A DNA stretch of 61,019 nucleotides, taken from IMG/VR virus record IMGVR_UViG_3300027908_000027, positions 1-61,019 of that record. One strand, 5' to 3'. Below the pieces are notes generated by a model that saw only the letters and a list, made by a program, of their open reading frames with translations, was not told the origin of the DNA and did not search any database. Source of the stretch: a virus. Shown in pieces: positions 41,479-50,877 of the stretch. Within the stretch, counting starts at the first letter, position 1. Each line of letters starts with the position of its first letter. The position numbers were made by a program, and so were the translations under genes.

Positions 41479-44400
41479 ATGAAGCGGATTCTCGCAGCTA
41501 CGCTGGCCCTGCTCATGGCCCTGGAACCTGCTGCATGGGCTCGGCCGGGGAGCGGGCCTGGTAGTGGAATTGTGCAGTCGGTTCAGATCACCGGTATCGC
41601 ACCGACACCTAACCCGTGCGCGGGGACTACCGCGTCTGCCCAAGGCGTTCCGGTCTGCTCACTGGCAGCGACCACGGCAAACGGACAGGCGCTGAACAAT
41701 CCGGTGTTCGTTCTGGTGAATGACGCCGGAACCGGGGTCACGCTGAGCGGCAGCACTCTCTCGGTCGGGTCCACGCCTCTTGTGTTGGGCTCGTACAGCC
41801 TCACCGTTTCGGTCACCGGATCGAACTGCACCGGCTGCACGCCAGCGCCGCAATACACCGTGCCACTTACGGTCTCGTCTACCGTCTCGATCACCGGTAT
41901 TAGCACCAGCCCAAGCCCAGTCACTACGACGGTGGGGACTGCACCGGGGACAATCATCGCAGCACTGACACCAACATCCAGCGGCGGCGCACTGACAGGC
42001 GCCACGATAGCCTGTGCGAACTGCCTCTCGAATGAGTTCCAGATAGGCGGCACCAACCCGTTCAACCTGGAGGTGGGCAGCGCCGGGGTCACTGCGGGTA
42101 CGCCAGCGCCGACATTCACGGTCACCGCGACGAATGCGACCAACAGCCCGCAGACCTATCCGATCACGGTGACGGTCAGCAGCGCCCCGATCAACCTTGT
42201 CAGCCCGGTGACCTGCACTGCCATCGCGACTGGGTGCAATGGCACGGTTGGGGATGCGCAGGCCACACAGCTTGGCACGCTGGTCCCCTCCCAGAGCGGC
42301 GGAAGCGCAGGAGCTATTACCTGCAACACCACCATGCCGAATAACGCCGGCGGCCGCTTCCAGATCACCGCAGGCTGTGTCCTGGAGGCGGGGGCGACGC
42401 CTTACACGGCCGGCTCCTACTCGGTAACCGCGGCATTCAGCGGAGCGTCCGCAAGCGCCAATCCGTACAACCTCAGTTTCTCCGTGGCCGTGAATCCATC
42501 GGGGAGCGTGTCGCAGGTTCAGGCGCGGACCCTGACCAACTTCGGCGGTTCGACGACTCCAGCGGGCTTCTGGCTGGACGTGGGTCAACCGTTTGCACAA
42601 GGGCAGGTCCCCGCCGGGGATGGCGTCCTGTGGAAGACCGGCGGCGGGACCACGATCAACTCGCAGTCCGACGATTGCTCGCATTGGCCGGATGGCAGCC
42701 TGCGGTTCTGCTCGTTCACTCTGCTGTATCCAACCGCTCTTGGGGTCAAAGCCCAAGACACGAATCTGGGGGCGTTCGATAACCCCGGAGCCGGTGCGAA
42801 CAACACCTGTTTCAGCGGCACGCCAACGACACTGATTACCAGCCATGACTTCCGGCTAGAGATTACTCCACCTGCTGCGACATTTACTGGCACGATCTCG
42901 AATGGAACGGTGGGGCAGGCTGGCACGACGCTGACGGTCGGCACGGTGACCAGTGGTACCATCGCGATCGGCCAAACGGTGTTTGGCGTCGGCATCACTG
43001 CGGGAACCACAATCACCGGAGGCAGCGGCACAAGCTGGACGGTCAGCGTTTCACAAAGCTACCAGTTCCAAGGCGCACCCGAACCGCTGGCCAGCGGGAC
43101 CGGCGGCACGACCTACACCATGAGCGCCAACAACGAGTTCACCAACGAGCCCACCACTCACGTCATCATGTATCGTAGTGGGCCAGAGGTTTGCTCGTAT
43201 GTGATCTCGGGGCTGTTCTGGGCCTCGAACACCTGGGGGGGCACCTTGATGCCGGGTAAGGCATGGGGTGCGCTCTACATCGATGCGCGGGTGGATGGAA
43301 CGTATCGCGTCTGGCCCAAGGTGTTCAACTGCCAGCCCATGTCTACATCAACCACCCAACAGGCATCCTGCCCCATCATCGGCTTTGCTCCTGATGCCAA
43401 CGGGGACGCCTACTCGATCAAAGATTACTCGCTGGGCACGCCAATCCTGATGGGGTGCGCGTACAGCGCATCTACAACCGTAACGGCAGCCTGCGTAAGC
43501 GGCGGCCACGCTACCTCCGGCCTGGGGGGCGTACTTGTCTACGGCTCAGCTATGGAAGCCCTCACGCCAGATGGGTGGCCATACGACAGTCAGGCCAGCG
43601 ACACGCATCAGGTCCTTCCAGCGTTCCCGCTTCTGGTCTCGGCCAACCCGCTAACCCGTGGCTGGTATGACGCAATGCTGTCCGAGAACATTGGTTATAC
43701 CGCTGGCGAACTCGCGGACATCTACGCATCGACATACACCGAGGGCTCTTACGGCCCGAACAACTGCGCAAGTTTCCAGACCGTTGGATGTGACTTCGGT
43801 TCAACCGGAGCGAGCGCCTTCATCGGCCTGATCTCGTTCGATTGGGCACAGTGCCTGCTTGCCGGTCAGAACACCTCAGCCGGGTGGCGGGTGTGCAACA
43901 ACGACCGCCAGCAAGCCCTGACGATGGATGCCGTCCAGATGAACTGGCGGGACCAACTGACCGGGCGTGAGGTCAACCTGAGTTCGGCCTACACCCCGCC
44001 GACTGGCACTATGAATACGTTCACCACCGGAGGGTGGGGAGGGCTGCCGTCGAGCGGTCAGATCACCTCAACATCCTGTGGCGGCATAGCGCAGTGCCAG
44101 ATTTCCAACCACCTTCAGACCATCAACCACCAGCCGAATTTCGCTGAGGGCCAGTGTATTCTGACCGGACAGCGGCCGATGTGCGATATGGTGATGGACC
44201 AGGCGAACCATGACATCGGAAGCCAGAACCAAGGCTTCCGCAATACCACCCTGAACAGCCACACGTATTCTGCCATCGCGCAGCTTGTCCCTCAGTTCAG
44301 ACAGAACGCTTGGCTGGAGCGGGACATCTCGAACGCCTACTGGCTCGCCCCAGACTTCCTGGTCGATCAGGTCACCGCGAACCCGCAGAAGGGGTATCTG

Positions 44401-45525
44401 GCGGCGCTGGTGACGGGCATCGAGGGCACGCTGGCCTACTACAACGACAACTGGTCACCGCCGCTGTACAACTCCGCCAACAACCCCCTTGGCATCGGGC
44501 CGACAGCAATCACCAGCGGGGTCACCACTGCCAGCTTGCCAGAGGCGATCTATTGGCAGGCCGGATACTGGATGAACGTCCTTTATCTCGATGCCGCTCG
44601 GGGCCTGTTCAATTCGACCAACTGCCGGAACGGTTCCTTCACCACGGCCGTGGCTTCTTGCAACATTCTGGTGAACTACGCGCACAACTTCTTTTACGGT
44701 GCTGCGGTCAATGGCTGCATGGCATTTGCCGCCGCAACCTATGCGCTCTCGACCACTACCGCAGCCAATCCGTACGCGGTCAACAACACAGGGATCTTGG
44801 CTCAGACGTTCTCTGATATGTACAGCGGCGATGTGGAATCGAACTCCGTTGATACCAACGGGTTTGCGCTAGGCACTCAGACGGCCGGAAGTACGATCAG
44901 CCTGACCTATTCGGGGGCGCCCGTTCCTGTGCCTCCGACAGTGGGCATGAACATCAACTTCGGCCGAGGTCAATCCTACACCAAGTCGGGGATCACCATT
45001 CCGGTTGGCGACACCGTGACCAGCGTGACGAGTTGCGGGTCCAATTGCTACACGCTGGGTCTTTCTGCTCCGATGACGGGGGGAACGATACCGACCGGCT
45101 TGGCATTCCTGTTCGTGACCTGGAACGCCGACTCCTGCTCGAACAATGGCTGTCAGCCGCCGATCATCCCATTCCCGCTGGTGAACGCGCTCTGTCCAAC
45201 TGAGGGGATGCTGGCGAATGCCAACATCTCCAGTCCCGGTTCAGTCCAGACCCACACGCTCTACTTCTACTCTGGGGCTATCGCGGGCGATCGGGTTGGA
45301 GAGCCATACGCAACCCAGGTCAGGACCTATTTCGAGAACTTCAGCCAGAGCCCGAACCCTGGAGGGGTAGTGAAAACCGGGCAGTGCGCCGGGGGTGTCG
45401 CGAATTGGGACGCGGCCAACACGTTCTGGCCTAGCGACGCACAGAACGCCAACCTGCCACAATGGCGCACGTATCCTGTAGGTGCGCCGCTCACGGTTGG
45501 CGGCGTATCTACGGGATGTAATTAG
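41479..45525 (+). CDS. Giant secreted protein (1348 aa): signal peptide, three Ig-like modules, large uncharacterised C-terminal region
   Basis: MKRILAATLALLMALEPAAWA/RPG. There are three modules of about 90-100 aa ending YSLTVSVTG / YPITVTVSS / YNLSFSVAV. About 1000 aa follow with no motif I recognise. Confidence 0.7.
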   Translation: MKRILAATLALLMALEPAAWARPGSGPGSGIVQSVQITGIAPTPNPCAGTTASAQGVPVCSLAATTANGQALNNPVFVLVNDAGTGVTLSGSTLSVGSTPLVLGSYSLTVSVTGSNCTGCTPAPQYTVPLTVSSTVSITGISTSPSPVTTTVGTAPGTIIAALTPTSSGGALTGATIACANCLSNEFQIGGTNPFNLEVGSAGVTAGTPAPTFTVTATNATNSPQTYPITVTVSSAPINLVSPVTCTAIATGCNGTVGDAQATQLGTLVPSQSGGSAGAITCNTTMPNNAGGRFQITAGCVLEAGATPYTAGSYSVTAAFSGASASANPYNLSFSVAVNPSGSVSQVQARTLTNFGGSTTPAGFWLDVGQPFAQGQVPAGDGVLWKTGGGTTINSQSDDCSHWPDGSLRFCSFTLLYPTALGVKAQDTNLGAFDNPGAGANNTCFSGTPTTLITSHDFRLEITPPAATFTGTISNGTVGQAGTTLTVGTVTSGTIAIGQTVFGVGITAGTTITGGSGTSWTVSVSQSYQFQGAPEPLASGTGGTTYTMSANNEFTNEPTTHVIMYRSGPEVCSYVISGLFWASNTWGGTLMPGKAWGALYIDARVDGTYRVWPKVFNCQPMSTSTTQQASCPIIGFAPDANGDAYSIKDYSLGTPILMGCAYSASTTVTAACVSGGHATSGLGGVLVYGSAMEALTPDGWPYDSQASDTHQVLPAFPLLVSANPLTRGWYDAMLSENIGYTAGELADIYASTYTEGSYGPNNCASFQTVGCDFGSTGASAFIGLISFDWAQCLLAGQNTSAGWRVCNNDRQQALTMDAVQMNWRDQLTGREVNLSSAYTPPTGTMNTFTTGGWGGLPSSGQITSTSCGGIAQCQISNHLQTINHQPNFAEGQCILTGQRPMCDMVMDQANHDIGSQNQGFRNTTLNSHTYSAIAQLVPQFRQNAWLERDISNAYWLAPDFLVDQVTANPQKGYLAALVTGIEGTLAYYNDNWSPPLYNSANNPLGIGPTAITSGVTTASLPEAIYWQAGYWMNVLYLDAARGLFNSTNCRNGSFTTAVASCNILVNYAHNFFYGAAVNGCMAFAAATYALSTTTAANPYAVNNTGILAQTFSDMYSGDVESNSVDTNGFALGTQTAGSTISLTYSGAPVPVPPTVGMNINFGRGQSYTKSGITIPVGDTVTSVTSCGSNCYTLGLSAPMTGGTIPTGLAFLFVTWNADSCSNNGCQPPIIPFPLVNALCPTEGMLANANISSPGSVQTHTLYFYSGAIAGDRVGEPYATQVRTYFENFSQSPNPGGVVKTGQCAGGVANWDAANTFWPSDAQNANLPQWRTYPVGAPLTVGGVSTGCN

Positions 45526-45530
45526 CGAAC

Positions 45531-45776
45531 ATGAGCGACCACAACGGCATTCCAATGCAGGTTGGTGAAGTGCGCGGACGCCTAACCGCCCTGGAAGAGC
45601 GGGTAGGGCGTCATGAGACGTTCGTTGGCGAATACCTCAAGAAGATAGACGACAAGCTAGACCGCGCTCTGATCATTCAGGAACAGGGCATCACGATCCA
45701 GCGGATTTGCCGATGGGTGTTGGGTCTCGCGATTGCGGCGTCCGGTTGGGTTGCAATGTGGCGTGGGCATACATGA
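45531..45776 (+). CDS. Tail-anchored membrane protein with N-terminal coiled coil (81 aa)
   Basis: VGEVRGRLTALEERVGRHETFVGEYLKKIDDKLD, then the C-terminal TM ICRWVLGLAIAASGWVAMW. Confidence 0.55.
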   Translation: MSDHNGIPMQVGEVRGRLTALEERVGRHETFVGEYLKKIDDKLDRALIIQEQGITIQRICRWVLGLAIAASGWVAMWRGHT

Positions 45777-45792
45777 AACGTGGAGCGCGTTA

Positions 45793-46863
45793 ATGGCTGG
45801 TGAGCACAGCGCCGAAGCTTTGCGCGCAACCGCAGCGGCAGTGAAAGCTGCGGGGAGTATCCGCGCTGCCGCCGACAAGTTGGGTGTCAATTACCACACG
45901 ATGAAAGATCGCGTTCAACAGGTGCGGCGGCATATGCCGGATGCATTACCTGCGGTTGGCAATCAGCCAGGCTGGGCACAGACCGAAGCGCCACAATACG
46001 AGGACTGCATAGCGCCAAGCATTGAAGGCGCCGATGAAGACCTGGACGCCATTATGGACCGCCTGGCGCAGGAAGATGAGCGAAATGAAAAGACGCGGGC
46101 TTCGCTGGAATGGATGGAGTATCAGGTTAAGGGTCGCGAGCCGTTTGCCTTGGTGTTCGTCGGAGATCCACACGCCGATACATGCGCCGTTCGCCTGCTT
46201 CTGAAGCACTTGGACATTATCGAGAAGACACCGCGTATGTGGGCGGTTGGTCTGGGGGACTGGATCAACCAATGGCAGCCTAAACTGCGAGGGCAATATG
46301 CCTTCCAATCCACAACGGAGCGCACGGCGCTCCGTATTGTTGAGTGGATGTTTCAAAAACCCATCTGGTGGGCGATCATTCTCGGCAATCACAACGGCGG
46401 CCGGTGGCATGGTGACGGCTCCGCGCTGAAGTGGATGCGTAATACGTCGCTGACGCCAGTTCAGGAATGGCAGGTCAAGTTTACCGTGCGATGCGGAGAT
46501 GCGTCGTGGAAGGTGTGGGCAGCCCATAACTTTCCGGGCAACTCCATATACAACGCTAACCATGGCCCGGATCGTCGGGCCATTTTTACAGGTGCCATAG
46601 CTGACCTGTTCGTTGCCGGCGATAGGCACACGTACAAGCTGTCGCACGATCAGCATGAGCACACAGGACGCATGTTCTGGACGGCGCGAGCCAAGGGCTA
46701 CAAGCGGCTGGATCTGTATGCTGAGGAGCTGGGCTTTAGCGGGAAGCAGAACATCGGCCATTCGATAGGCGCAGTGTTCGATCCGCGCGATGGCTCGCTG
46801 CAGTGCTTTTCGGATGTGGAGAAGACAGCGAGCTATCTAGAGTTTTTACGGGGGCGGCAATGA
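45793..46863 (+). CDS. HTH + calcineurin-like metallophosphoesterase
   Basis: Met21 of track ORF 45733..46863, GGAG SD. N-terminus SIRAAADKLGVNYHTMKDRVQQVRR. Phosphoesterase motifs VFVGDPHAD, GLGDWIN, LGNHNG, AAHNFPG, VAGDRHTY. Confidence 0.7.
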   Translation: MAGEHSAEALRATAAAVKAAGSIRAAADKLGVNYHTMKDRVQQVRRHMPDALPAVGNQPGWAQTEAPQYEDCIAPSIEGADEDLDAIMDRLAQEDERNEKTRASLEWMEYQVKGREPFALVFVGDPHADTCAVRLLLKHLDIIEKTPRMWAVGLGDWINQWQPKLRGQYAFQSTTERTALRIVEWMFQKPIWWAIILGNHNGGRWHGDGSALKWMRNTSLTPVQEWQVKFTVRCGDASWKVWAAHNFPGNSIYNANHGPDRRAIFTGAIADLFVAGDRHTYKLSHDQHEHTGRMFWTARAKGYKRLDLYAEELGFSGKQNIGHSIGAVFDPRDGSLQCFSDVEKTASYLEFLRGRQ

Positions 46864-47198
46864 AGAAGTCTGGCGCCCTCCGCATTAAAGTCAATCACGT
46901 TGACTATTACGTGCTGCCGCTCGGGGCTGAATCCACAGAGGAGGCTGTAGGCTGGCATCAGCCGAAGGAACAGACAATCTATATTGATCCAGGGCACCCG
47001 CCGTCAGAGCAGGTGCGTATCTTATTTCATGAGTTAATCCACGCATTTTGGTGGGCGTATAATCTTACAGAAGAAATGCGAGACGAGGAGAAGGTATGTG
47101 ACGCGCTTGAAAGCCCTCTAGCAGCATTATTTCGCGATAATCCAAGGCTTGGACAAATAATCAGAGGCGCATTCTCTGGCAAACCATTGGTGAAATAG
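46860..47198 (+). CDS. Small HExxH zinc-metallopeptidase-like protein
   Basis: Met20 of track ORF 46803..47198; ATGA overlap; ILFHELIHAFWW. Confidence 0.55.
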   Translation: MKKSGALRIKVNHVDYYVLPLGAESTEEAVGWHQPKEQTIYIDPGHPPSEQVRILFHELIHAFWWAYNLTEEMRDEEKVCDALESPLAALFRDNPRLGQIIRGAFSGKPLVK

Positions 47199-47324
47199 AT
47201 GCACTGGACTTGTAAATGCGGCTCGCGTGTATTAAACAATGTGCCGTATTGCGCGAGCTGCGGTGCATTGCGTCCCGCGCCGCCACCGGAGAAGCCGCCG
47301 TCAGATCAGCCGAGGAAAGAGTAG
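47199..47324 (+). CDS. Zinc-ribbon micro-protein (41 aa)
   Basis: ATG abuts the upstream TAG. MHWTCKCGSRVLNNVPYCASCGALRPAPPPEKPPSDQPRKE (CxC-N11-CxxC). Confidence 0.35.
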   Translation: MHWTCKCGSRVLNNVPYCASCGALRPAPPPEKPPSDQPRKE

Positions 47325-47338
47325 TGGATCAGGACGCC

Positions 47339-47539
47339 ATGATACCGAATGAAACCGGCGAGCTTCCGTTAGCATTCTCTTTTGAAGTCGCGCGCAAGCC
47401 GAATGGCTGGTGGCACGTCACTGCGAAAAATCATCATGTCGGGTGTTACCTTATCGGTATGGATCTCGGCGCATTGCTGCATGAGGCGCCTTACGTGTTG
47501 AACCATCTGTTGAAATTGGACGGACCTAAACCAGCATGA
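47339..47539 (+). CDS. Hypothetical protein (66 aa)
   Basis: Met42 of track ORF 47216..47539 (alternative GTG 47324 overlaps the upstream TAG). Confidence 0.45.
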   Translation: MIPNETGELPLAFSFEVARKPNGWWHVTAKNHHVGCYLIGMDLGALLHEAPYVLNHLLKLDGPKPA

Positions 47540-48003
47540 GGCGGGAATGCCATTTGTTCGGTGGATCATGCAATTGTCCGGTTGGCGATTGCCGCGTTGC
47601 GCCGGCTAGTGATGGCGATTGGATGCCAGGCATGCCGCGTCCGACCGGCCCGGTGCCAGCTGAGCCTGCAGGCGAATTTACGCAGGAAATGCACACGCGC
47701 GGCGGCCTACGCTATGACGATGACAAGCCGCGCTTTGACTTACTGCCGCCAGAAGCCATGGAAGCACTTGCTCGGCACTATTTGGCTGGTGCGCAAAAGT
47801 ATGACGCCCGCAATTGGGAAAAAGGCATGGCGTGGGGGCGGTGCTTTGGCTCCATGATGCGCCACGCATGGGCTTGGATGCGTGGTGAGGACATCGACCA
47901 AGAGACTGGCAATCACCACATGATCGCTGTCGCGTGGAACGCCATTGCGTTGTTCACCTACGCGACGCGACATATTGGAGAGGACGATAGGCCGAAGCTA
48001 TGA
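47536..48003 (+). CDS. dATP/dGTP diphosphohydrolase-N-terminal-like (DUF5664-type) protein
   Basis: LRYDDDKPRFDLLPPEAMEALARHYLAGAQKYDARNWEKGMAW...RHAWAWMRGEDIDQETGNHHMIAVAWNAIALF matches the k.D.gKpr.dLlp...GA.KY..rNW.kG...RH...G...D.esG..Hl pattern. ATGA overlap. Confidence 0.55.
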   Translation: MRRECHLFGGSCNCPVGDCRVAPASDGDWMPGMPRPTGPVPAEPAGEFTQEMHTRGGLRYDDDKPRFDLLPPEAMEALARHYLAGAQKYDARNWEKGMAWGRCFGSMMRHAWAWMRGEDIDQETGNHHMIAVAWNAIALFTYATRHIGEDDRPKL

Positions 48004-48374
48004 AAATCTATGTCGCAGGCCCCATGCGTGGTCTTCCTTACTTTAACTTCCCAGCGTTCCATGAAGCAGCAGATAAGCTGCGCTCTCTAGGCCACGATGT
48101 ATTTAGCCCGGCAGAACGCGACAATGACCGACACGGTAAGGATATCTCCGCCGGCAATGTTGCTGGCTGCGAGGCGGTGGCCGCCGCCGAGCATGGCTTC
48201 AATCTACGTGAAGCGCTTGCAGAGGATCTGGAATTCATCTGTTGGCATGCTGATGCAATAGCGCTTTTGCCTGGATGGGAACGCAGCAAGGGCGCAACAG
48301 CAGAACGGGCCGCAGGATTGGCGTTGGGTCTTATGGTCGCGCCGATTGCTGATCTGACGAGGGAAGAGCCGTGA
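48000..48374 (+). CDS. DUF4406 / nucleoside 2-deoxyribosyltransferase-like protein
   Basis: MKIYVAGPMRGLPYFNFPAFHEAADKLRSLGHDVFSPAE...LPGWERSKGATAERAAGLALGL. ATGA overlap. Confidence 0.55.
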   Translation: MKIYVAGPMRGLPYFNFPAFHEAADKLRSLGHDVFSPAERDNDRHGKDISAGNVAGCEAVAAAEHGFNLREALAEDLEFICWHADAIALLPGWERSKGATAERAAGLALGLMVAPIADLTREEP

Positions 48375-48577
48375 GGCCGCTGACTGAACGATCGCTTCAA
48401 AATACTATCGGAGGCCAACCTTTATGGTGCCGCGTAGCCATTACGCGGAATTGGAAAAGGTACCGACTATGGTGGCGCACCAATAATGCCTCTGTGAAAT
48501 GTCGCGGTTCTCTTAGGCACGCATTGTCTTATCGGTCTGATTATGTGCTTGGAGCAAGGGGCTTACCATTACCATGA
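48371..48577 (+). CDS. Basic Trp/Arg-rich ORF (68 aa) spanning an otherwise empty 200-bp gap
   Basis: Track ORF. The GTG start overlaps the upstream TGA (GTGA) and the stop overlaps the downstream ATG (ATGA). Third-position GC is low, so coding status is uncertain. Contains the hairpin CCGCGTA-gccat-TACGCGG (48430-48448). Confidence 0.35.
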   Translation: MRPLTERSLQNTIGGQPLWCRVAITRNWKRYRLWWRTNNASVKCRGSLRHALSYRSDYVLGARGLPLP

Positions 48578-49182
48578 CCAACGCTTACCCTGAAAAGCCA
48601 ACAGTTCCATACGAGCGTACATCTGTAGCAATGGCTGCTGTAATCTCGTACCTGCAGGCAGCGTCTTCGCCCGTAGAAGTTAAACGCTCAGCTTACATCA
48701 TGTTCCGGGTTGAATCGGCCAATGGCGCATCTGGCATCAATAACAATTATGTGGGCTGCCAGGCAGACGTTGGCCGCTGGGCTGCGAAGTTTGATGCGCT
48801 GATTACTGGCATTGTCGAAGTGCAGGAGAACGGTACCGGCCGCGATAGGCTGTTTGTAGCATTCGACCGCTGGCAGTCGTGTGTGGATTTTCTGCTGGAT
48901 CGCGTGGAGCATCGCGGTATCTACATCGGCGGCGTGGCCATTCCGATCAGCAACATGATGGTTGCGACAGAGACTGACCTCTGCGCCGCCTATGTGCGCG
49001 AGTGGGCAACGGGACAGCACGCAGCGCAACCGACTGCACAGCAACTCGCGGACTGGCGCTCTATGTATGGGCAGGCAACGGGGCTGTTTCGGCATGGAGC
49101 GCAAGTAGGGGCGCCCGCGTCGGAGCCGATGGCGGATGATCTGAACGCTGCGGAATTGACGAAAGTGGAGACGAGTACATGA
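48574..49182 (+). CDS. Hypothetical protein, possible murein hydrolase (endolysin candidate by position)
   Basis: FRVESANGASGINNNYVGCQAD loosely resembles the E-S-x-x-G...NN-x-G glucosaminidase/lysozyme motif. Followed by a two-TM ORF and lipoprotein ORFs. Confidence 0.35.
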   Translation: MTNAYPEKPTVPYERTSVAMAAVISYLQAASSPVEVKRSAYIMFRVESANGASGINNNYVGCQADVGRWAAKFDALITGIVEVQENGTGRDRLFVAFDRWQSCVDFLLDRVEHRGIYIGGVAIPISNMMVATETDLCAAYVREWATGQHAAQPTAQQLADWRSMYGQATGLFRHGAQVGAPASEPMADDLNAAELTKVETST

Positions 49183-49427
49183 ACCCAACGGTTACGGGCG
49201 GCCTGACGCTTGCTGGATCGCAGGTGGGACCGGTTGTCCAGTATTTCTTCCAGATCATTCACGTCGCGCCGCCATCAGATAACGTGGCTGCGTTGATCGG
49301 CGTGGGGCTGCTGACTGGCACACATGCATTGTGGGTGTTCGTCAACAACCGCTTGCCGGCAAAGACGCCCCCGGCTGCTGTTGCGCCTGCTGCTGCGCCA
49401 CAAGCACCAGCACCGGCTGCCCAGTAA
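49179..49427 (+). CDS. Two-TM membrane protein (holin candidate)
   Basis: GGLTLAGSQVGPVVQYFFQII and VAALIGVGLLTGTHALWVFV, with a Pro/Ala-rich tail. ATGA overlap. Confidence 0.45.
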   Translation: MNPTVTGGLTLAGSQVGPVVQYFFQIIHVAPPSDNVAALIGVGLLTGTHALWVFVNNRLPAKTPPAAVAPAAAPQAPAPAAQ

Positions 49428-49636
49428 TGCGGAAAACGTACAAAATAAATGGCGGCAAATTGATTGCCACTCGTGCCGACAAGGGTTGGATATGTGAGTT
49501 CCTTGCCAGCAACAAGGACTCATACCAATTGCCCAATGGCTGGTGGGTATGGGGCGCTAGCACCTACTGGTGCCTTTGGTTTCCTGCTCTCAGTGATGCG
49601 CGTCGCATGGCTCATAAGACATTCCGATGCGCATAG
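49427..49636 (+). CDS. Hypothetical Trp-rich protein (69 aa), lower-GC patch
   Basis: Met33 of track ORF 49331..49636; TAATG overlap. Confidence 0.45.
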   Translation: MRKTYKINGGKLIATRADKGWICEFLASNKDSYQLPNGWWVWGASTYWCLWFPALSDARRMAHKTFRCA

Positions 49637-49731
49637 CTGCTGCTCTCATCCTACTCGCCGCCTTTGCGCTGGCCGGATGTATGTCCGACGCCGGGCAATG
49701 CCGTCCGCATACGTTCCAACTCGGATGCTAA
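49627..49731 (+). CDS. Mini-lipoprotein (34 aa; 17-aa mature peptide with 3 Cys)
   Basis: Hand translation MRIAAALILLAAFALAGCMSDAGQCRPHTFQLGC. The lipobox L-A-G-C is perfect. Overlaps the upstream ORF by 10 nt. Confidence 0.45.
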   Translation: MRIAAALILLAAFALAGCMSDAGQCRPHTFQLGC

Positions 49732-49748
49732 CCAGGAGAACACACCAC

Positions 49749-50285
49749 ATGCTTACTCGTCGCACTCTCGTTGCTGCCGCGCCGTCTGTTGGCCTTGTCG
49801 GCATAGTTGCCGCTTGCTCTGGCACAACCACCACGCCCGCTCAGATCGTCACTGACGTTCAGAACGCGGTATCCGCTCTCGCCAATTCGTTCAGCGCAGT
49901 TGTGGCGCAGGCGCCGAACGTCGTGCCAGTCAACACATCGGCGCAGATCACCAGCGCGCTTGCGCAGGCATCGTCTGTGCTTGGCTCGCTATCCACCAAC
50001 TTGGCGGCCAATGTCGCAGCGCCAATCGTGCAGCAGGTCGAGGGGGCGCTAAATACCGTTATCAGTGCGGCATCTGCCGTGCCGCTGATCCCGCCTCCGT
50101 TCTCCACCGCGCTCGCTGCGGCATCCATAGTGCTGCCGATTGTCGAGGCGTGGTTGAACAGTGTGCTGCCAGCAACGTCTGGCGCTGCGCCGGCCATGAT
50201 GGCGGCTCGCGCGAAGATGGCCGCGCTTGCTCCGATGAGTTCGGCTCAGGCTGAGGCGACACTGGCGCAGCTGGCGGGAAAGTAA
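49749..50285 (+). CDS. Ala-rich helical lipoprotein with Tat-like RR motif
   Basis: Met96 of track ORF 49464..50285, SD AGGAGAA. MLTRRTLVAAAPSVGLVGIVAAC (lipobox V-A-A-C). A late hydrophobic segment FSTALAAASIVLPIVEAWL is present. Confidence 0.6.
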   Translation: MLTRRTLVAAAPSVGLVGIVAACSGTTTTPAQIVTDVQNAVSALANSFSAVVAQAPNVVPVNTSAQITSALAQASSVLGSLSTNLAANVAAPIVQQVEGALNTVISAASAVPLIPPPFSTALAAASIVLPIVEAWLNSVLPATSGAAPAMMAARAKMAALAPMSSAQAEATLAQLAGK

Positions 50286-50325
50286 GCGACTGGGGAAGGT
50301 GGGCATTAAATGACGGGGTGCAAGA

Positions 50326-50877
50326 GTGAGTAAAACGAGAAGCGACGGCACACCGATCACCTTGGACTGGCTTCGTTCGGTTTCTATCCCAGAGCCAAAT
50401 AGTGGTTGTTGGCTCTGGGATCTATACGTTACCCATGACGGATACCCTCGCGTTCACACGGTCAGAGGACGACTTGGTTTGGCTCATCGCGAGTCATACA
50501 AGCTTGCTAAGGGCGCGATACCAGATGGCAGTCACATTGACCATCTGTGCCGAGTGCGGAGCTGCATAAATCCCGACCATTTAGAAATTGTCTCGCCAGC
50601 CGAAAATCGTCGCCGCAGCAGTTTAGATGCTCTCTTTAGGATGCCAACTCATTGTCGGAAGGGACATCCTTTTGGTCAGGATAACCCGCCGGGGAAACGA
50701 GGCGCTTGCAAAATTTGCAGATCACTAATCGTAAAGAAATGGAATGACATTCAAAACGGAGCCAGGAAAAAGAACTGGACCCCAGAGCAATTTTCCGCTC
50801 GTAGCAGAATAAATTGCGCCAGACTTTGGGGGAAAGAACCTGACCCAGCCGATCTCGCGCTAACTGGTATGAGATGA
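50326..50877 (+). CDS. HNH homing-endonuclease-type protein
   Basis: GCWLWDLYVTHDGYPRV...LAHRESYKLAKGAIPDGSHIDHLCRVRSCINPDHLEIVSPAENRRR. Lower-GC patch. GTG start. Confidence 0.75.
   Translation: MSKTRSDGTPITLDWLRSVSIPEPNSGCWLWDLYVTHDGYPRVHTVRGRLGLAHRESYKLAKGAIPDGSHIDHLCRVRSCINPDHLEIVSPAENRRRSSLDALFRMPTHCRKGHPFGQDNPPGKRGACKICRSLIVKKWNDIQNGARKKNWTPEQFSARSRINCARLWGKEPDPADLALTGMR

Follow-up and report, generated by a model that had tools for sequence, protein, structure and literature searches.

A DUF5664-DUF4406 gene pair with predicted deoxynucleotide-degrading function in a mosaic pre-lysis segment of a P22-like temperate phage

The closest described counterpart of the genes considered here is the dATP-removing system of the PurZ0 actinophages Ghobes and Wayne, in which a deoxynucleoside triphosphate (dNTP) pyrophosphohydrolase, DutZ or DUF5664-1, acts together with DmtZ, an enzyme resembling the nucleoside 2-deoxyribosyltransferases (NDTs), to convert dATP to dAMP and then to adenine (Poubanne et al., NAR 2026, PMC12884076). 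In 77 of 85 PurZ0 phage genomes a single fusion protein combines the pyrophosphohydrolase with the NDT-like enzyme. The stand-alone DUF5664 protein of Wayne converts dATP, dUTP and dGTP to the deoxynucleoside monophosphates (dNMPs) in reactions with Mn2+, turning over dATP fastest with a kcat about ten times that for dGTP, and has no activity on the ribonucleoside triphosphates tested; such activity has been measured in the DUF5664 family only for this protein and for a fusion protein of phage SH-Ab 15497 (PMC12884076). DmtZ cleaves dAMP to adenine and deoxyribose-5-phosphate and can transfer the sugar-phosphate to 2-aminoadenine; it matched no Pfam model, and the authors used a hand-made hidden Markov model (HMM) of their own (PMC12884076). 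In this study we analyzed the 61,019 nt of IMG/VR virus record IMGVR_UViG_3300027908_000027 (positions 1 to 61,019, hereafter the window), in which a DUF5664 gene is followed by a DUF4406 gene within a chain of seven open reading frames (ORFs) at 45793 to 48577.

As in the PurZ0 system, a protein of a dNTP pyrophosphohydrolase family is paired in the window with a member of the NDT superfamily. The Wayne enzyme belongs to the same Pfam family, PF18909, as the DUF5664 protein of the window, and the Tyr/Asp(Asn)/Glu triad of the NDTs is kept in its partner. However, that partner is a DUF4406 protein (a DUF1937 protein in relatives), whereas DmtZ matched no Pfam model; the window lacks PurZ, DpoZ and DatZ; and the phage is P22-like and temperate, with the two genes in a late operon 5' of the lysis genes and not in a nucleotide-metabolism cluster. 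The DUF5664 (dGTP_diPhyd_N) domain is also common to MazZ of Acinetobacter phage SH-Ab 15497, a dATP/dGTP diphosphohydrolase with DUF5664-DUF550 architecture. Unlike MazZ, the window protein has no DUF550/MazG-like C-terminal domain, as PF18909 is the only Pfam family found in its 155 amino acids (aa), carries a Cys-rich leader of 55 aa and does not lie in a Z-genome cluster.

We favor, at slightly better than even confidence, the interpretation that the late operon ends in a mosaic of accessory genes, flanked by the tail and depolymerase genes and by the lysis cassette, in which three layers of different history are combined. The first layer would be a metallophosphoesterase with an N-terminal helix-turn-helix (HTH), here called HTH-MPE, which belongs to a widespread pre-lysis phage family; the second would consist of small genes encoding a HELIH protein, a Zn-ribbon protein and orf66, with the so-called basic ORF most likely a spacer; the third would be the DUF5664-DUF4406 pair. 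As part of this interpretation, and with the same leaning, the two genes of the pair are regarded as translationally coupled and as one two-enzyme cassette, gained or exchanged as a whole, because the two domains are fused elsewhere, DUF5664-DUF1937 gene pairs recur, the cassette has been swapped relative to a close relative, and the Z-genome phages provide a precedent. A sequence-only reading of the window had treated the chain as one functional module. The region is not one seven-gene machine, and the pair is a variant of the phage pathway described in 2026. What is new is a putative dNTP-catabolic pair of DUF5664 and an NDT-like protein outside the Z-genome phages, drawn from other NDT-like families and placed in a late operon beside HTH-MPE.

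The DUF5664 protein (47536-48003) matches PF18909 over residues 57-152 at 3e-32 (111 bits against a cut-off of 27) and phrog_801, annotated 'dATP/dGTP pyrophosphohydrolase', at 5e-42. K88, Y89, G97, R109 and H110, which are invariant in 36 family sequences, are all present, in agreement with the DUF5664 assignment of the sequence-only reading. By analogy with the assayed relatives, the core is predicted to be a dNTP pyrophosphohydrolase that releases dNMP and pyrophosphate (PPi). Relatives occur on at least 571 viral stretches. The neighbors in the 80 best viral loci include DNA polymerase A, SNF2 and other helicases, PhoH, dCMP deaminase, ThyX and ribonucleotide reductase; a replication and nucleotide module is the usual site of DUF5664. 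On one T4-like contig (L168, 2023-4375), which carries the DUF5664 homologue P0060 (77% core identity), two genes adjacent to each other encode Pribosyltran and NAMPT/NAPRTase proteins, a combination that resembles published NAD+ reconstitution (NARP-type) counter-defence pairs.

The DUF4406 protein matches PF14359 at 1e-18 (67.9 bits against a cut-off of 22) and phrog_355, annotated 'nucleoside 2-deoxyribosyltransferase', at 8e-25, and its family comprises more than 2,400 database clusters. Its AlphaFold model has a pLDDT of 90.9, and NDTs and MilB account for all of the top 25 Foldseek matches in the PDB, DNPH1 and BlsM ranking below them. Y4, D76 and E102 are invariant in 31 DUF4406 sequences, fusion proteins included, and line up with the KIYLA, NDLE and GTAWE segments of the NDT 6evs in a weak HMMER alignment; judged from these alignments, they occupy the positions of the NDT catalytic triad (Tyr, Asp/Asn and the Glu nucleophile). 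The family match, the fold and the triad agree with the earlier placement of this protein in the NDT superfamily. The fold matches those of DNPH1/Rcl, MilB, BlsM and the NDTs with target-normalised TM-scores of 0.43-0.51, and Tyr, Asp and Glu stand at the expected positions, but identity to these enzymes is only 16-29%, and DUF4406 is a separate Pfam family. The protein is predicted by this analogy to be a dNMP N-glycosidase, yielding the base and deoxyribose-5-phosphate, or a transferase.

From these two predictions we infer a sequential pathway from dNTP to dNMP to base. In the first step DUF5664 would hydrolyze a dNTP to dNMP and PPi. In the second, DUF4406 would cleave the N-glycosidic bond of the dNMP to give the free base and deoxyribose-5-phosphate or, alternatively, would pass the deoxyribose-5-phosphate to another base. 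Their combined action would irreversibly withdraw a particular deoxynucleotide from the pool, and the most likely purpose, by analogy, would be sanitation or biasing of the pool, for which DNPH1 and MazG serve as models. The sequence-only reading had proposed manipulation of nucleotide pools for the whole chain; the dNTP activity of the DUF5664 homologue and the NDT fold support this for the pair, and the claim has no support for the chain as a whole. If this interpretation is true, two-step dNTP demolition is not tied to 2-aminoadenine DNA and occurs also in ordinary temperate phages whose hosts are Gram-negative (probably Pseudomonadota), and two large DUF families would receive their first functions.

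The DUF5664 and DUF4406 genes overlap by 4 nt (ATGA). Both domains are found in single proteins elsewhere (P0138, P0142, P0147 and one at locus L162). In L173, whose P0057 ranks next after the window's own database entry among the DUF5664 homologues, a DUF1937 gene follows DUF5664 with a 4-nt overlap; L002 shows the same overlap between the two genes, and L090 keeps their order. Conversely, a divergent DUF5664-like gene (E 5e-18) overlaps by 4 nt the start of the closest DUF4406 homologue, in L172 (85% identical), which is directly followed by ORFs with C-termini that resemble, by eye, those of the 202-aa and 82-aa proteins found next in the window. The DUF1937 domain can be aligned along its full extent to the profile of DUF4406, with Tyr, Asp and Glu matched (hhalign E 3.6e-4, probability 37%), and both families touch PDB entry 1t1j. 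Among the 80 best DUF5664 loci, DUF4406 is adjacent in L121 and fused in L162, and a DUF1937-like gene lies downstream in L090. A separate observation concerns L090 (4971-5665), where the DUF5664 frame continues for about 140 nt after the '...DDRP' at which it normally stops and reaches into the beginning of DUF1937; this may be a sequencing frameshift, a truly long overlap or a gene-fusion intermediate.

The comparison with L005, the closest relative (84% HTH-MPE identity), shows the boundaries of the cassette. Homology detected by blastn falls into blocks at 45792-47322 (77%), 47534-47701 (89%) and 48580-49369 (92%), with nothing between them, and in L005 a DUF3310 domain replaces the DUF5664 core, DUF4406 and the basic ORF. 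The exactness of the exchange makes the window and its close relative a natural isogenic pair for comparison. The possibility that DUF3310 of L005 is a truncated DUF5664 homologue was examined and rejected, as hhalign finds no similarity (probability 0.2%).

One Cys-rich leader of 55 aa (MRRECHLFGGSC[N/D]CPVGDC...) precedes DUF5664 in the window and DUF3310 in L005 (11846-12011), joined in frame to each, and protein P0130 carries PF11753. The leader sequences are 89% identical at the DNA level, and 15 of the 18 differences are at codon position 3, corresponding to 13 synonymous and 3 non-synonymous codon changes in frame (1 and 15 in the other two frames). Because the codon-position-3 bias is seen in the leader frame only, the pattern of substitution shows that translation starts at the ATG at 47536 and that database entry P0056 (123 aa), beginning at Met33, is too short. 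The leader is under purifying selection. It resembles a portable module for protein N-termini and may be a zinc knuckle or a targeting peptide.

Several observations weigh against the interpretation of the pair and its surroundings given above. Most DUF5664 genes stand alone, with DUF4406 adjacent or fused in only 2 of 80 loci, and the DUF4406 homologues that are 71-73% identical stand alone beside RusA and an SNF2-like helicase in early regions of temperate phages; because most DUF5664 genes and the closest DUF4406 homologues are found in this way, each protein is clearly able to function without the other. Enzymes that serve replication are also oddly placed in a late operon, and no enzyme assay was found in the literature for any DUF4406 or DUF1937 protein. 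In addition, the recurrence of HTH-MPE followed by DUF5664 in divergent phages could mean that the assignment of these genes to separate layers underrates a functional link.

The alternative that survives best, although we consider it unlikely, is that DUF5664 and DUF4406 are enzymes of a housekeeping type that became adjacent by chance and form no sequential pathway, the former cleaning the dNTP pool in the manner of MazG and the latter having some unrelated nucleoside or nucleotide function. This would be in agreement with the fact that each gene is usually found without the other, and with the frequency of 4-nt start/stop overlaps in this genome, where they make up 15 of the 39 same-strand junctions in the working gene list (+ strand, 14093-54054), with 5 of 7 in the chain and 10 of 32 elsewhere; such coupling is not special to the chain. 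Chance adjacency is difficult to reconcile with at least four fusion proteins of both domains, with overlapping pairs of DUF5664 and an NDT-like gene that recur with two families, DUF4406 and DUF1937, and with the movement of the pair as one cassette relative to L005. There is also biochemical precedent for the same two-step logic (PMC12884076).

The second alternative concerns HTH-MPE, the gene at the start of the chain. Its homologues are 330-390 aa long, and their start matches the ATG of the window gene. The AlphaFold model (pLDDT 88.8) consists of a three-helix HTH (7-47), a disordered linker, a long helix (84-106) and a calcineurin-like domain (~108-356). D125, H127, D156, N159, N199, H200, H245 and H279 are invariant across 32 homologues, and the protein has the five metal motifs (DxH, GDxxD/N, GNH[D/E/N], H and GxH) and the beta-alpha-beta-alpha-beta sandwich fold of the calcineurin-like superfamily, so that the claimed phosphoesterase with all five motifs and an N-terminal HTH is borne out. 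It matches phrog_7339 at 5e-18. The Foldseek matches are generic (LpxH, PP5, lambda phosphatase, Mre11 and the Pol delta B subunit, with target-normalised TM-scores of 0.24-0.52) and also include phage 'calcineurin-like' proteins. Neither Metallophos nor Metallophos_2 of Pfam matched HTH-MPE at E up to 0.1, and no such match is precomputed for 55 homologues; the family is too divergent for the Pfam Metallophos models. Sequence and profile searches against the PDB gave only a chance HTH match.

Lambda NinI and other phage metallophosphoesterases, including gp48 of mycobacteriophage A10ZJ24, share with HTH-MPE the calcineurin-like fold and all the metal motifs, and they are likewise encoded by non-structural accessory genes. 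Gp48 is a nuclease that serves anti-defence by damaging host genomic DNA (PMC12287305). Compared with NinI, HTH-MPE adds the N-terminal HTH and the long helix, and its site in the late operon suggests late and not early expression. An ordinary NinI-type protein phosphatase, which the sequence-only reading had named as an outcome that would contradict it, was also considered and rejected: the signatures GDxHG, GDxVDRG and GNHE of NinI/PrpA-type PPP phosphatases are absent, HTH-MPE reading GDPHAD, GLGDWIN and GNHNG instead, and in Foldseek 1g5b is matched no more closely than unrelated metallophosphoesterases are. The protein also differs from the named phosphoesterases in that the Pfam Metallophos models are blind to its family and it has no characterised homologue. 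We infer a phosphodiesterase or nuclease, bound to DNA or directed at nucleotides, that would be produced in the late phase of infection. That its substrate is DNA or a nucleotide is plausible by analogy, because calcineurin-type enzymes take part in dNTP-depleting cascades of host defence and a phage metallophosphoesterase disrupts host DNA.

Relatives of HTH-MPE form 55 protein clusters and were found on at least 198 viral contigs, on 53 metagenome contigs and, among species-representative genomes, in two metagenome-assembled genomes (MAGs), one Reyranella and one betaproteobacterial. The only cultured phages with a relative are three Pseudomonas phages (~30% identity). In one of them, the lambdoid phage FBPa42, the gene follows RusA and lies shortly before the lysis genes, which corresponds to the place of NinI in the lambda gene order. 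The neighborhood was analyzed at 84 loci (80 viral contigs and four contigs of homologues). The 149 ORFs at positions +1 and +2 include 22 GTA_holin_3TM, 10 Peptidase_M15_4, 5 GH108 and 4 Phage_lysozyme genes and, outside lysis, 9 DNA methylases, 11 DUF6321 genes and 1 dGTP_diPhyd_N gene, and in relatives tail-fibre-like proteins are encoded upstream. HTH-MPE is a conserved pre-lysis gene, nearly always directly 5' of holin and endolysin genes, and the slot behind it takes varied cargo. Among the top-ranked papers on calcineurin-like phosphoesterases with holins, endolysins or prophages, none was found on a phosphoesterase beside a lysis cassette. Since the family is widespread in viral contigs and almost absent from cultured phages, its fixed pre-lysis site is a target for the search for a new late phage function.

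On this second alternative, which we hold to be doubtful and place after that of independent enzymes, HTH-MPE, DUF5664 and the NDT-like protein would act in the late phase of infection as a unit of three enzymes that breaks down DNA or deoxynucleotides. The nuclease or phosphodiesterase would release dNMPs or act on dNDP or dNTP, the pyrophosphohydrolase would drain the dNTPs, and the N-glycosidase would destroy the dNMPs, with starvation of superinfecting phages or clearance of dNMP-type alarm signals as possible purposes. The gene order in question, HTH-MPE followed by DUF5664 and in some cases by DUF1937 or DUF4406, is found in the window and recurs in L002, L090, L129 and L159, whose HTH-MPEs are 63%, 28%, 30% and 30% identical, respectively, to that of the window. 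L090 repeats the whole layout, with a tail-fibre-like gene, a small membrane protein, HTH-MPE, DUF5664 and DUF1937, followed by an NlpC/P60-like protein (by eye), a GH108-type endolysin (motif by eye), a membrane protein and a lipoprotein. HTH-MPE lies immediately 5' of DUF5664 in 3 of 80 DUF5664 loci, compared with ~0.005 expected under independent placement (198 of 2.9 million contigs), an enrichment that is not a probability, as the contigs are phylogenetically non-independent. A further parallel is the m6-dAMP-triggered dNTP-depleting cascade, in which calcineurin-type enzymes convert dADP to dAMP (bioRxiv 10.64898/2026.01.15.699771). This PUA-Calcineurin-CE + HAD system likewise uses a calcineurin-type phosphoesterase in a multi-enzyme conversion of dNTP to dNMP, but it is a host defence with a PUA sensor and a HAD partner, and PADLOC 2.0 (2023) gave no hit.

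However, profile HMMs detected DUF5664, together with a DUF1937-type NDT-like gene, at only 1 of the 84 HTH-MPE loci (L002) and DUF4406 at none, leaving HTH-MPE without any of the three in 83 of 84. None of the three was found at the 53 metagenome loci, 19 of which have at least 2 kb of downstream sequence, and DUF5664 was absent from the two MAG loci. We favor an insertion hotspot in the pre-lysis slot over a functional triad, because unrelated cargo such as methylases and DUF6321 also lands behind HTH-MPE. More doubtful again is the proposal that a late three-enzyme unit, recurring in very divergent phages and taking DNA-derived deoxynucleotides down to free bases, represents, in a phage with ordinary DNA, an undescribed counter-defence or exclusion strategy that erases danger signals of dNMP or dNTP type, such as the m6-dAMP that PUA-Calcineurin-HAD systems sense, or starves competing phages.

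The sequence-only reading had also suggested that the seven genes together counter defence systems based on cyclic-nucleotide or NAD-derived signals. Such a unit, destroying the signals of CBASS, Pycsar, Thoeris or type III CRISPR, would account for the presence of a phosphoesterase and two nucleotide-handling folds in one operon, and accessory regions often hold anti-defence genes; phage metallophosphoesterases can serve anti-defence, as gp48 does via damage to host DNA (PMC12287305). We nevertheless regard it as very improbable. The genes do not co-occur beyond the closest relatives, and HTH-MPE lacks DUF5664, DUF4406 and DUF1937 in 83 of 84 and 53 of 53 loci and is fixed before the lysis genes, without the other genes, in well over a hundred examined contigs. 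A limited link between HTH-MPE and DUF5664 is nevertheless seen in the recurrence of their order at four other loci. The only assayed DUF5664 relative in question acts on dNTPs and not on the ribonucleoside triphosphates tested. PADLOC 2.0 gave no meaningful match for 10 proteins, the sole hit being a 9-bit chance match for the Zn-ribbon protein; no chain protein matches a named phosphodiesterase family in Pfam or the PHROGs, and beyond DUF5664 and the NDT fold these databases assign the chain proteins to no characterised enzyme family.

Least probable of all is that the pair supports a modified base, with DUF4406 as a deoxyribose-5-phosphate transferase loading a non-canonical base, as DmtZ does 2-aminoadenine, and DUF5664 removing the competing canonical dNTP. 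Such a role is known for DmtZ with DutZ or DUF5664-1 in PurZ0 phages (PMC12884076), and the NDT triad is conserved in DUF4406, but the closest relative L005 lacks the pair, no base-modification family was found, and this is a temperate phage with an integrase and no polymerase gene found, presumably replicated by host polymerases. The scan covered the 60 remaining ORFs of the working list, the chain ORFs and ten large ORFs by Pfam, and the other large tail and downstream ORFs by the PHROGs. Among these ORFs there was no match to PurZ/PF00709 (adenylosuccinate synthetase), a DNA polymerase or the HD/YfbR families, nor to a thymidylate-synthase-like or other Pfam-recognisable base-modification family, and the Z-genome combination of PurZ with DatZ, MazZ or a DpoZ-type polymerase is absent. 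A Z-type or otherwise modified genome is unlikely for this reason, and the earlier statement that no base-modification genes are present is confirmed by Pfam over the rest of the window.

Table 1. Features of the chain and its flanks, with positions in the window
Feature	Position	Strand	Basis or remark
1,348-aa protein	41479-45525		signal-peptide-like N-terminus; end of tail genes, just 5' of chain
81-aa protein, C-terminal hydrophobic segment (tail-anchor-like)	45531..45776	+	ORF
HTH-MPE, 356 aa	45793..46863	+	homologue alignment, AlphaFold, phrog_7339
HExxH (HELIH) protein, 112 aa	46860..47198	+	phrog_1233, sub-threshold Pfam
CxC...CxxC zinc-ribbon micro-protein, 41 aa	47199..47324	+	Zn_Ribbon_1 sub-threshold
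orf66, 66 aa	47339..47539	+	ORF; alternative start GTG at 47324
Leader of DUF5664 protein, residues 1-55, four Cys	47536..47700	+	shared with L005
DUF5664 / dGTP_diPhyd_N core (~residues 55-155)	47701..48003	+	PF18909, phrog_801
Swapped cassette: DUF5664 core, DUF4406 and spacer, versus 274-nt DUF3310 core in L005	47702..48579		blastn
DUF4406 protein, NDT-superfamily fold, 124 aa	48000..48374	+	PF14359, phrog_355, AlphaFold
Basic ORF, 68 aa	48371..48577	+	doubtful as gene
Start of lysis cassette (202-aa protein and 82-aa membrane protein)	48574..49427	+	probable
202-aa protein, next gene 3' of chain	48574-49182	+	ORF

All the ORFs and junctions listed in the sequence-only reading are present (Table 1). 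ATGA overlaps occur at 46860, 47536, 48000 and 48574 and a GTGA overlap at 48371; TAG and ATG abut at 47198/47199, and a 14-nt gap lies at 47324/47339, where an in-frame GTG at 47324 would give a TAGTG overlap. No chain protein had a match in NCBIfam. As regards the domains named in that reading, DUF5664, DUF4406 and the HTH-phosphoesterase hold, the HELIH and Zn-ribbon proteins are sub-threshold in Pfam yet conserved in relatives, and the seventh ORF is doubtful as a gene.

The HELIH, Zn-ribbon and orf66 genes are clade-specific or unique small genes. The HELIH protein scores below the Pfam cut-offs for DUF6782 (19.8 bits, cut-off 27) and M78 (18.2 bits, cut-off 22) and matches phrog_1233 at 3e-13 and phrog_87 at 4e-5. 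Its homologues are 60% identical in L005 and L174 and 43-44% in L176 and L177, with the HELIH motif kept in L005, and it is found beside HTH-MPE only in the close clade (84% and 71% HTH-MPE identity). It is a putative small metallopeptidase-like protein. ImmA/IrrE (M78) and DUF6782 proteins have HExxH in a similar local context, and, as in the ImmA/IrrE case, the gene follows an HTH-encoding gene; however, its Pfam matches are sub-cut-off, it spans only positions 11-107 of the 306-position phrog_1233 model, and no cognate repressor is evident. The Zn-ribbon protein (Zn_Ribbon_1, 17.4 bits, cut-off 25) was found only in the 84% relatives, with 88% amino-acid identity in L005, L001 and L174 and all four Cys retained.

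Nothing examined yielded a relative of orf66, which has no family match in Pfam, the PHROGs or PADLOC and no DNA homology with L005 over 47323-47533. The same slot in L005 (11620-11846) is occupied by an unrelated Cys-rich ORF of ~76 aa (…CACWRD…CSLGGCCGNPRN…) that likewise overlaps the leader ORF through an ATGA at its end, which indicates that the slot holds interchangeable small genes. The basic ORF has GC contents of 0.43, 0.49 and 0.59 at codon positions 3, 1 and 2 (0.50 overall), the reverse of the real genes here. It matches no family in Pfam, the PHROGs or PADLOC and is missing from L005 and from the syntenic L172, where the next gene starts 5 nt after DUF4406. It is probably a non-coding spacer of 199 nt (48375-48573) that belongs to the swapped cassette. 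A structured RNA in this spacer was considered and rejected (no Rfam match, no tRNA, folding z-score -0.58).

The 81-aa protein before HTH-MPE has its maximum 19-aa Kyte-Doolittle score, 1.46, at residues 59-77. It has no match in Pfam or the PHROGs and is not conserved in L005, whose homology begins at 45792; small ORFs 5' of HTH-MPE are also present in L004, L005 and L090, and the one in L090 has a C-terminal hydrophobic stretch. The 1,348-aa protein further upstream, which is wholly different from the gene at the equivalent place in L005, probably accounts for the only PcRGLX-like (polysaccharide-lyase-type) Pfam match of the window, a match from a pooled scan that names no ORF, and is likely a tail-associated depolymerase.

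On the 3' side, the family of the 202-aa protein comprises 125 representative clusters and matches no Pfam or PHROG model. In other proteins its domain is joined to CHAP+SH3_3 or to Tlde1 domains, or makes up the C-terminal end of polypeptides 1,100-2,400 aa long, and because of these fusions and this placement it is probably an undescribed peptidoglycan-acting domain. The 82-aa membrane protein has a hydrophobic segment with a Kyte-Doolittle score of 1.78, and the ORF after it has a lipoprotein-type signal, as read from the translation. The chain lies, as had been claimed, between tail or exported-protein genes on the 5' side and peptidoglycan-acting-like and membrane genes on the 3' side. 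Consensus scans found no sigma-70-like promoter in 45000-50500, and terminator-like sites there are at background level, with no excess; the chain therefore reads as the distal part of a long operon.

The phage is a P22-like temperate phage, since the window encodes a P22 portal (2e-131), the P22 coat protein and the Hc3 head-closure protein in profile scans, together with ejection-protein-like genes, a tailspike-like protein and, on the minus strand, a tyrosine integrase. The longest contig that bears the window proteins has 61,533 nt. A DNA similarity search against 50,697 phage records gave one 81-nt match and no annotated relative, and no tRNA genes, which might have given clues to an attachment site, were found in the window. 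An HNH endonuclease (phrog_826, 6.5e-35) is encoded at 50326-50877, directly 3' of the lysis-like genes, and one further window ORF, which the pooled scan did not resolve, gave a GIY-YIG match in Pfam; both are possible homing elements that could add to the mosaicism. A 310-aa protein at 7199-8131 matches the cell-cycle regulator GcrA and HTH_23. Together with the Reyranella MAG that carries the phosphoesterase and the GTA-type holins beside many relatives, the GcrA match hints at an alphaproteobacterial host.

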